DNA of 64,000 nucleotides from Octopus vulgaris (taxonomy: Eukaryota): NCBI GenBank assembly GCA_951406725.2, contig OX597834.1:2294001-2358000 (forward strand), read 5' to 3'. Each line of letters begins with the position of its first letter. The stretch's first letter is position 1. The notes under the pieces are model-generated. The model saw nothing but the letters and a program-made list of their open reading frames with translations, searched no databases and was not told where the DNA came from. Both the position numbers and the translations under genes were made by a program. Below, piece by piece: positions 53,830 to 57,125 of the stretch.

Positions 53830-55023
53830 ACACTTCCTCCGCCTCCGACTCGTGTGCAGCCGGGACCAGGATTTCGAGACCCGTACCAATACCCGGCCCT
53901 CTTGTTCATGCGTCGCAGATAGCCTTCGACCCTTGTCTAAACTGCCCTTACCTGCGTTCCTCAAATCGAACGTACCACCGCCTTCTCTCCTTCGCCACTC
54001 CAATTCCCCCAACCCATTTTCCTCTCCGTTTCCACCCCTCCACCCTACTCCTTCGTCGGAAGATCCTGCGGGACTTCCGTCGTCTTCAGCTAGATCCCAC
54101 CATCCTCTCTGTTTTCTTCAACCCACCCTTGCCCTCCTTCAAAAGCGCCAGTAACCTACGCACCTTACTGGTCCGTAGCTCCCTCCCCTCCTCCATTCCA
54201 ACTCATCCCGGATCCTTCCCCCGTTGCCACACTTGTCCTTTCATCACCAACACCACCTCCCTCACTTGATCCAACCAGCACACCCTCTACATTAGGAACT
54301 CTTTCTCCAGCACTTCTTCAAGCCTCATTTACTCTATCAGGTGTAATCTTTGCAATAAACTTTCCGTGGGCCAGACGGGCCGCCGGCGAGCCGACCGGTT
54401 CACACAACACCTACGAGACGTTCGTCTACGTAAGAACACCGTCTGACATTTTCGCTTGGTGCCCACGCCACCTCATACCTCACCATCTTCGGCCTTTCCC
54501 TACACCATGGATCCACCAACTCTAGGCTCCGCCTGGAACAGCATTACATTTTCACCCTATATACTTACACTCCTTTCGGACTTAACACAACCCCCTCCTC
54601 TCAGTGACTTTCCCTACAAACCCTTTTTTGAAAAAAAACATTTCACTCTATCTTTTTATTCGTTTATTCTTATATATAATTTTTTAAAAATAATTTTTAT
54701 TTATTTCTGTTACTGATTTATTCACATTTATTGTTTTATTATTACTAATTTTTATTTTTCATTATTTATTTATATTATTTTTTATTTCTTATATTCCTAT
54801 ACCACACCTCTCTCTCTTTCTCTCTCTCTCTCTCTAACACACACACGTGTGTGTGGATATAGTTTTTTTTATTCTCTCTCTGTTTATTTCCTCGTGTTCC
54901 TTTCTGTTGAAGAGCGTAGGCTCGAAACGTAAAAAAACTTCCTCACCTTCCCGAGCGTTAAACTAATACACCTGTTTGTTGTTTATACACCTGTCTTCGT
55001 ATTTTTGTTTTTCTGTAAATTTC

Positions 55024-55268: not shown

Positions 55269-55932
55269 GGCGGCGAACTGGCAGAATCGTTAGCACGCTG
55301 GGCGAAATGCTTAGCGGTATTTCGTCTGCCGTTACGTTCTGAGTTCAAATTCCGCCGAGGTCGACTTTGCTTGTCATCCTTTCGGGGTCGGTTAAATTAA
55401 GTATCAGTTACGCACTGGGGTCGATATAATCGACTTAATTCCTTTGTCTGTCCTTGTTTGTCCCGTTTATGTTTAGCCCCCTATAGGCAATAAAGAAATA
55501 AGAAACGTTAGCACGCCAGGCGAAATGCTTAGTGGTAGGTATTTCGTCTTCTTTACGTTCTGAGTTCAATTTTCGCCGAGGTCGACTTTGCCTTTAATCC
55601 TTTCGGAGTCGATAAATTAAGTACCAGTTGCGTACTGGGGTCGATCTAATCGACAGGCCTCATCCCCGAAAATTTCGGGCCTTGTGCCTAGAGTAGAAAG
55701 GAATAGTTATTTCTACTCTAGGCACAAGGCCTTGAAAATTTTTTTTTTGGTGGGGGGAATGGGGCTAGTCGATTACATCAACCCCAATGCGTAGCACTTA
55801 TTTCGTCGACCCCGAAAGAATGAAAGGCAAAGTCGACCTCGACGGAATATGAACTCAGAACGTAAAGACAGACGGAATACCGCTAAGCGTTTCTCTCGGC
55901 GTGCTAACGTTTCTGCCGGCTCCTCGCCGCCT
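55269..55932. mobile_element. Cluster of SINE family C: two plus-strand copies and one inverted copy; central segment resembles the Deu/Nin-type SINE domain
   Basis: GGCGGCGAACTGGCAGAATCGTTAG head, GAGTTCAAAT B-box and ATCCTTTCGGGGTCG..AAATTAAGTA core. Other copies near 16760-16910, 18292-18460 and 26505-27000. Confidence 0.8.
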
Positions 55933-56177: not shown

Positions 56178-56217
<40 letters not shown>

Positions 56218-56306
56218 AATAAATATATATATATATATATATAAATATATATATGCACACACATGTGCATACGCATATGCATTCCCATACATACTTACAT
56301 TATATA

Positions 56307-56350
<44 letters not shown>

Positions 56351-56404
56351 ATGGATAAAAACGTCAAGATAGAAAATGCTAAAATAATTTTATAAAAAAC
56401 ATTT

Positions 56405-56440
56405 CAGTACCGGTTTCAGTCATTGAGACTTTTTCAACTG
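56405..56440 (-). ncRNA. Candidate minimal hammerhead ribozyme, left arm of the foldback
   Basis: Minus strand reads CAG TTGAAAA AGTC-TCAAT-GACT GAA ACCGGT A CTG. Confidence 0.5.
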
Positions 56441-56722
56441 TAAGTATGGAAAACAATTAAATTTTGGAAAAATTAAAAGAAAAGTTTTTTTAAAAGAATA
56501 TTTGCATAGTATTCAAATACAAGGGGCATTTTCCTTGTTTCTTCTGCCTTCTTCTTCTTCCTTACCAAGAATTCACAGTGACCTGGAACCCACAAGAGTA
56601 AACAAGAGAGACAGAGACAGGCAGAAACAAGGAAAATGCCCCTTGTATTTGAATACTGCGCAAATATTCTTTAAAAAACTTTTCTTTTAATTTTTTCAAA
56701 ATTTAATTGTTTTCCGTGCTTA

Positions 56723-56758
56723 CAGTTGAAAAAGTCTTAATGACTGAAACCGGTACTG
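56723..56758 (+). ncRNA. Candidate minimal hammerhead ribozyme, right arm of the foldback
   Basis: CAG TTGAAAA AGTC-TTAAT-GACT GAA ACCGGT A CTG. Confidence 0.5.
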
Positions 56759-56932
56759 AAATGTTTTTTTATAAAATCATCTTAGCATTTCCTACCTTGA
56801 CTTTTTCCCATATATATCAACTCGTGTGTTCCTTTTCAACCTTCTACACGCACACATACACACACATATATATATATTTACATATATGCTGTGTATGTGC
56901 GCGTATCAGTACACACACACACACACACACAC

Positions 56933-56984
<52 letters not shown>

Positions 56985-57073
56985 TGTATGTATATATATC
57001 TTTATATATAAATATGTACATATATGTGTTCGTATGTATACATATGTATATGCATCTCTCTCTCTCTCGCTCT

Positions 57074-57125
<52 letters not shown>

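Follow-up and report, generated by a model that had tools for sequence, protein, structure and literature searches.

Two Inverted Arms in a TA Microsatellite

The window, meaning the whole analyzed stretch of 64,000 nucleotides of Octopus vulgaris DNA, carries two head-to-head copies of the 3′ end of a Penelope-like element (PLE) set between microsatellite tracts. Each of these copies is a pseudo-LTR (pLTR) and contains a 36-nt hammerhead motif. The features of the locus are as follows:

56209..56349, no strand: (TA)n/(TG)n microsatellite flank, likely target site
56350..56542, minus strand: left copy of the PLE 3′ end (pLTR), inverted and 5′-truncated; it stops at the short 3′ boundary, without tail
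56405..56440, minus strand: hammerhead motif of the left arm, minimal type I, with a U3-A8 core and A-U at 10.1-11.1
after base 56408 (A17), minus strand: predicted cut in the left motif
56546..56848, plus strand: right copy of the same PLE 3′ end, sense, 5′-truncated, tail included, delimited by BLASTN against the natural full-length copy L149
56723..56758, plus strand: hammerhead motif of the right arm, minimal type I, with the predicted cut 3′ of A56755
56818..56848, plus strand: PLE tail of about 31 nt, on the right arm only
56849..57125, no strand: (CA)n/(TA)n microsatellite flank, likely target site

The preliminary description of this DNA had mapped two inverted arms, each with the 36-nt motif, and both the sequence and the alignment place them where it did. 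The arms are 92% identical over 185 aligned nt, and loop II is the sole difference between them inside the motif, as had been described. In the right motif, U3 is 56726, stem II pairs 56733-56736 with 56742-56745, G12 is 56746, the palindrome spans 56749-56754, and A17 is 56755. The arms of the foldback were thus placed correctly, but its right end was not. Instead of ending at 56812, the insertion reaches 56848, because the right copy bears the tail of about 31 nt. The stretch between the arms is no spacer; it is the extra upstream portion of the longer right copy. This copy amounts to about 300 nt out of an element of about 4.4 kb. Only 3′ ends are present in the window, and the PLE coding part is absent from it. 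The TA-rich microsatellite setting noted earlier is evident on both flanks.

Two other repeats were observed in the window. At 54904-54931 on the plus strand, just before a (TA)n run, a different repeat carries a second minimal hammerhead-like motif, probably decayed, with U at position 6, an extra A, the stem II GAGC/GCTC, and the 4-nt palindrome ACGT. Another common repeat occupies 55269-55928 as nested direct and inverted copies, and its 129-nt arms are 84% complementary.

Source Element of the Arms

The window arm represents the 3′ end of a PLE that is about 4.4 kb long, codes for protein, and occurs in high copy. A search of the source genome (2.8 Gb) with the arm yielded 1,517 candidates, and 40 of them were scored. 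Of the 29 other best-matching loci fetched, five carried a further arm, inverted, no more than 1.5 kb away. The remaining loci had a single arm, with a common 3′ end and varied 5′ cut points. Walking upstream from the arm led first into a GIY-YIG frame and then into a reverse transcriptase (RT). When loci were chosen by GIY-YIG DNA, the arm lay downstream in sense at 23 of 30 loci, a set that counts the query locus and one duplicated pair. The preliminary description had asked whether the arm adjoins PLE open reading frames elsewhere, and these RT and GIY-YIG frames answer that it does.

The coding order of the element is RT, a CX4CxxC linker, and GIY-YIG. A younger sister subfamily retains intact tandem units about 4.4 kb apart:

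L149:1210-4736 and L149:5643-9169, minus strand: sister-subfamily tandem units (also in L150 and L151)

This subfamily has an intact 717-aa frame for RT and endonuclease (EN), preceded by a 411-aa ORF without a Pfam match. The two share 64 nt, which are read in different frames. The overlap suggests either a frameshift or an internal start. Against Pfam, the 717-aa frame scored 34.1 bits for RVT_1 (cut-off 29.6) and 21.3 bits for GIY-YIG, just under the cut-off of 22.6 (E 3e-4), and many homologues combine PF00078 and PF01541. The frame carries the linker CGRPNCGIC at 583 as well as DKG and YLDD motifs. Its EN has a CxxC before YIGQT and histidines in RMALH and FSQH, which together make up the CCHH set. 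The element also has the hallmarks of EN+ PLEs, namely an RT followed by a C-terminal GIY-YIG, 5′ truncation, direct or inverted partial-tandem pLTRs, and an optional tail at one end. By its linker and CCHH residues, it appears to be an EN+ PLE of the Neptune/Nematis type, with the placement of the RT among PLEs drawn from the DKG motif and the domain order.

In full-length copies, the tail of about 31 nt runs on into the 5′ UTR and the first ORF; the arm is therefore a pLTR, and the motif lies in the sense of the element. The motif is located about 55-65 nt ahead of the usual 3′ boundary, and the first ATG follows about 125 nt past the predicted cut. Both boundaries adjoin ATAT tracts.

Public databases also list PLE-type RT-GIY-YIG proteins under bivalve gill symbiont genomes (P0045, P0058, P0062, P0068, P0091, P0097, and P0110). 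These are likely host sequences within the bins.

Sequence Evidence for the Hammerhead Fold

The motif had been proposed to be a minimal type I hammerhead in a PLE pseudo-LTR, with a U3-A8 core and A-U at 10.1-11.1. This assignment holds, and the sister subfamily has G-C at 10.1-11.1. The motif has positions 3-9 with a paired 3-8, G12-A13-A14, A15.1-U16.1, and H17. An Rfam scan returned 107 matches at E ≤ 10, all of them noise from microRNA-type hairpins and none from a hammerhead family, which fits the earlier remark that a standard search would miss this variant. As a monomer, the motif did not fold better than its shuffles (z from -0.34 to +0.22 for motif-sized pieces).

Genome-wide pattern counts were far above their controls. 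With stem II left free, the pattern had 3,358 exact matches in the genome versus 0 for the reversed control. These counts, together with the covariation across families, remove the chance match that the preliminary description had held in reserve. A looser pattern that barred the stem I of the window family gave 6,014 matches versus 140 for its control, and stem III was palindromic in 96 of the first 100 listed matches, with non-palindromes allowed. Hammerheads with G17 do not cleave. G17 occurred in 186 matches (control 43), whereas matches carrying A, C, or U at this position numbered at least 9,372. C3 forms had 721 matches (control 427). The core letters were fixed by the search patterns, and therefore core invariance among pattern matches is no evidence.

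Stem pairing was compared in a set of 43 motifs, assigned by eye to 12 families. These motifs came from 40 fetched loci (39 from the looser pattern and one from the free-stem-II listing), two sister copies, and the window. Stem I was Watson-Crick in 141 of 172 cells, versus 43 and 36 when one strand was slid by 1 or 2. Pairing within a motif's own family reached 36.7 of 48, versus 16.3 of 48 across families, and 0 of 20,000 draws reached the own-family score. In an alignment of 20 of these motifs, 86.6% of cells were paired versus 58.4% after shuffling, and two-sided changes occurred in all six stem I pairs; these shuffle counts are not probabilities, because the motif sequences are related. 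Covariation in stems I and II, which the preliminary description had named as the feature to look for, was seen across families in both comparisons. Positions 10.1-11.1 were unpaired (U.U or A.C) in 8 of the 20 aligned rows. The C at 11.1 lies within a CpG, and G.U forms may therefore be decay. Stem I of the window family consists of 3 bp, a mismatch, and 2 bp. Direct covariation at 3-8 is weak. One U3-A8 copy shares 85% identity with a C3-G8 tandem family, a difference that could be decay, and C3.A8 forms are present too.

One recurrent C3.A8 string without stem II (14 of 100 listed) was dropped as a hammerhead: at the one locus checked (L235), it is the antisense of what we take to be a LINE RT coding motif.

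The comparison of subfamilies and families is the informative test, and it supports the fold. Between the sister and window motifs there are two substitutions, which change A-U to G-C at 10.1-11.1, and a 2-nt loop insertion, while the core is identical. Their flanks differ by about 25 substitutions in about 158 nt, counted by eye. Decay within one set of inserted copies was also measured. In 20 GIY-YIG-picked copies, changes affected 30 of 720 cells in the motif versus 186 of 2948 outside it, where the count takes in homopolymer indels (Fisher p = 0.027; core alone p = 0.08). The difference is weak, and this test, put forward in the preliminary description, does not decide the question, since neutral decay is what inserted copies should show in any case.

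The link between motif and coding element was seen from both directions. Starting from the motif, ORF remnants were present in 5 of 40 loci, all five with the motif in sense after the endonuclease; none was seen in the other 35 within the 2.5-4 kb fetched. A search led by a distant protein placed the motif about 2 kb beyond the ORF at 9 of the 12 loci that were extended, each time in sense and never in antisense. These protein-led loci belong to one family. The motif fell within the first 1.5 kb in 1 of 30 loci, 12 of the 30 were extended, and 3 of these 12 were without the motif.

Origin of the Head-to-Head Pair

Head-to-head pairs were common, with 32 of the first 100 listed motif matches forming 16 of them. 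Junctions and arm lengths (about 0.1 to 3 kb) differ from pair to pair, and many junctions join different element positions. The foldback was therefore formed afresh at insertion and did not move as a unit. Of the 19 pairs scored for the tail, 18 had it on one arm alone, one had it on neither arm, and none had it on both; the one-tail count has p = 4e-5 against 0.5. Scoring covered 15 of the 16 listed pairs, the pair in the window, L015, L021, and L023. It excluded L241, and L010 and L024 gave one scorable arm each.

We consider it very probable that the locus consists of head-to-head, 5′-truncated PLE 3′ ends, likely produced by two-sided priming at a TA microsatellite, with hammerhead folds that are predicted to cleave weakly. 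Arm identity, the one-sided tail, core conservation, and stem covariation are direct observations. For the steps of insertion, we propose the following course. The enzyme of the element would cut the TA microsatellite, and RNA copying would start from both sides of the break. Each cDNA would have its own internal start site, with about 31 nt between the two; one site would yield a tail and the other none, and both would adjoin ATAT tracts matching the target. The cDNAs would then run upstream, stop early, and get joined. Published systems offer precedents. The PLE protein of an anole cuts and extends both target strands, and two internal start sites bound its tail (PMC11167929). In rotifer PLEs, self-priming was proposed from palindromes at inverted junctions, and a tail on one inverted pLTR was noted (PMC3846280).

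The rotifer proposal leads to a different account of the second arm, in which it is made by fold-back self-priming on one nucleic acid strand instead of by priming from both sides of a break. Near-perfect palindromic junctions at L236 and L240 are of the kind that such copying would leave. However, fold-back copying alone leaves the excess of one-tailed pairs and the lack of two-tailed ones unexplained, many junctions link different element positions, and the anole protein already combines two-strand cutting and extension with two tail-bounding start sites. On these points we judge self-priming unlikely at this locus, and two-sided priming is preferred.

More distant readings fared worse. The preliminary description had envisaged an independent non-coding mobile element made of two inverted pLTRs, moving as a unit and giving a ribozyme on either strand. 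The frequency of head-to-head pairs among the listed matches and the prediction that the whole unit folds into one long hairpin would suit such an element. This reading is nevertheless largely refuted and very improbable, as every pair has its own junction and arm lengths, the window junction was not seen again among 40 other listed places or the 29 other loci, and the arms are continuous with a coding element whose 3′ end they represent. A foldback or TIR DNA transposon was rejected on the second arm being present at only 5 of 29 other loci, with varying junctions. A non-LTR retrozyme was rejected as well, since the arm continues into the coding element and no tandem array of the arm exists at the locus. 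That the arms are TIRs of a DNA transposon and the motif a chance match could have drawn on the inverted arms in a TA context, the unremarkable monomer fold, and the missing Rfam match. It is refuted, and we assign it practically no probability, by solo copies with variable 5′ truncation and a common 3′ end, by the RT-EN frame upstream, and by covariation across families.

Predicted Cleavage of the Hammerhead

For the truncated PLE copies, self-cleavage is predicted to be weak only, as a dimer or with the help of protein. The hammerhead would act in tandem master transcripts, dimerizing via the ACCGGU palindrome. At this locus the motif would only ride along in an insertion that is dead, masked by the antisense arm in any read-through RNA. 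The idea that the perfect antisense arm keeps the ribozyme hidden agrees with the predicted folding of the full foldback RNA, which hides the motif inside one long duplex whichever strand is read. Nothing suggests a use for the window locus itself.

Dimer predictions differed between families. In the window family, the active dimer lies 6 kcal/mol above the best predicted dimer, which pairs U3 with A17. In the tandem family F4, by contrast, no predicted dimer is more stable than the active one. Lunse et al. reportedly described PLE hammerhead variants that cleave as dimers.

The 5′ ends of full-length copies were then compared with the predicted cut, with 29 of 30 copies scored and one unscored. 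A pile-up at the cut was not seen: 1 of the 29 begins at +1, and the other full-length 5′ ends scatter from +51 to at least -1442, the reference end. The single case, L104 (the same as L109, reverse strand), starts 1 nt after the predicted cut, right after (TA)n, and may be a copy of cleaved RNA. It had raised the idea that full-length 5′ ends mark the hammerhead cut as a general rule, which was rejected at 1 of 29.

A PLE origin would also be compatible with a motif that does not cleave here and acts as a structure for dimerization or protein binding, or is blocked by the U3-A17 pairing. The competing fold, predicted 6 kcal/mol lower, and the 5′ ends without a pile-up at the cut both lean this way. 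Minimal PLE hammerheads cleave poorly in vitro, even as dimers (PMC4209133). In the anole PLE, the hammerhead is dispensable for insertion in vitro, which its mutants left unaffected, and no RNA-seq reads started or ended at the cut (PMC11167929). On the other side, the avoidance of G17 and a core unchanged between subfamilies are what catalysis demands, the anole hammerhead cleaved once protein was added (PMC11167929), and L104 starts 1 nt past the predicted cut. We weigh a non-cleaving motif as a minority reading, rather unlikely, and retain weak, assisted cleavage as the preferred prediction.

Comparison with Known Systems

From its sequence, the locus is best described as a truncated, inverted PLE insertion of an ordinary sort, whose hammerhead fold is real and of a known variant type. 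A CX2-5CxxC linker ahead of the EN distinguishes the Neptune and Nematis clades (Craig et al. 2021, PMC8557442). Their PLEs and this element share the RT, this linker, the GIY-YIG EN, 5′ truncation, and partial-tandem pLTRs. They also have in common (TA)n targets, a hammerhead near the 3′ end, and an inverted 5′ copy, along with a tail of 30-40 bp that often marks one end only (PMC8557442). This element differs in the 411-aa upstream ORF of its young subfamily, which shares 64 nt with the RT-EN frame but is read in a different one; in such PLEs, a frameshift can set ORF1 apart (Fig. 1 legend, PMC8557442).

The U3-A8 exchange has a precedent in Cercyon of Schistosoma mansoni, where it replaces C3-G8 in about 1,300 hits (Cervera and De la Pena 2014, PMC4209133). 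Metazoan PLE hammerheads and the window motif share a palindromic minimal helix III and a short helix I, and the window family likewise has many solo copies of truncated PLEs and close pairs on opposite strands (PMC4209133). Unlike the hammerheads of that study, the window motif has a 4-bp stem II and a 6-nt palindrome, and it lacks an extra base between 9 and 10.1. The G10.1-C11.1 pair is termed highly conserved there (PMC4209133), whereas it is A-U, G-C, or U.U by family in this genome. A U.U at the base of helix II also occurs in the axolotl HHR_Amex2 (PMC7229834).

The Poseidon PLE of Anolis carolinensis resembles this element in its AT-rich targets and in a tail that lies between two internal RT start sites (Frangieh et al. 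2024, PMC11167929); for this element, the two sites are proposed from the tail pattern. In both, the hammerhead precedes the 3′ boundary, and the inserted copies extend across the hammerhead. Poseidon differs in its clade, in an ORF that starts inside the hammerhead, and in priming without homology (PMC11167929). Non-LTR retrozymes share with this locus non-coding sequence, a type I hammerhead, and a link to PLEs (PMC7229834; bioRxiv 10.64898/2026.07.22.740005). Retrozymes are short direct tandem units, whereas this locus is an inverted pair of coding-element ends (PMC7229834).

U3-A8 cores, inverted pLTRs, and one-sided tails are thus already published. A description of this PLE family was not found in the literature searched, and its variants may stand in supplements or in work on dimer-cleaving PLE hammerheads. 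The window locus is an ordinary dead insertion, and the family behind it is the useful material. Its young subfamily offers intact tandem copies and a hammerhead variant missed by CUGANGA searches and by Rfam; ribozyme counts in such genomes are therefore too low. The natural variants of the stems and of 10.1-11.1 provide material on the tolerance of minimal hammerheads. The 18 of 19 one-tail pattern makes the question of inverted PLE insertion testable in the existing in vitro system.

A broader picture can be drawn tentatively, and we hold it as a conjecture with less than an even chance. A radiation of Neptune/Nematis-type PLEs and retrozyme-like repeats in this genome, with about 9,000 motif copies or more in a dozen families, might run on an active U3-A8 hammerhead in which 10.1-11.1 is free (G-C, A-U, or U.U). 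In the window family, U3-A17 would form a latch opened only by the protein of the element. The one-tail rule would be the genomic record of two-ended priming from two start sites on the RNA.

Other Hammerhead-Bearing Repeats

Several other repeats with hammerheads were observed in the genome. Retrozyme-like direct tandems of about 361 bp (L162, L185, L186, L163, and L164) carry a U3-A8 hammerhead, and their active dimer is the best predicted fold. In a related form, A-U replaces G-C at 10.1-11.1. At L234, units of 359 bp stand in a tandem and inverted array that carries a canonical C3-G8 hammerhead and is 85% identical to the U3-A8 copy L165. One C3-G8 family with 359-bp tandems made up 26 of the 100 listed C3 matches. 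At L152-L158, L170-L173, L180-L184, and L222-L233, PLE families show U.U at 10.1-11.1 and next to it a C-G pair. One of these U.U families is very young: open frames of 776-847 aa are numerous in it, and its 3′ region of about 2 kb is rich in microsatellites. At L023, just past the short arm, a neighboring repeat in the same TA tract carries a canonical CUGANGA minimal hammerhead.
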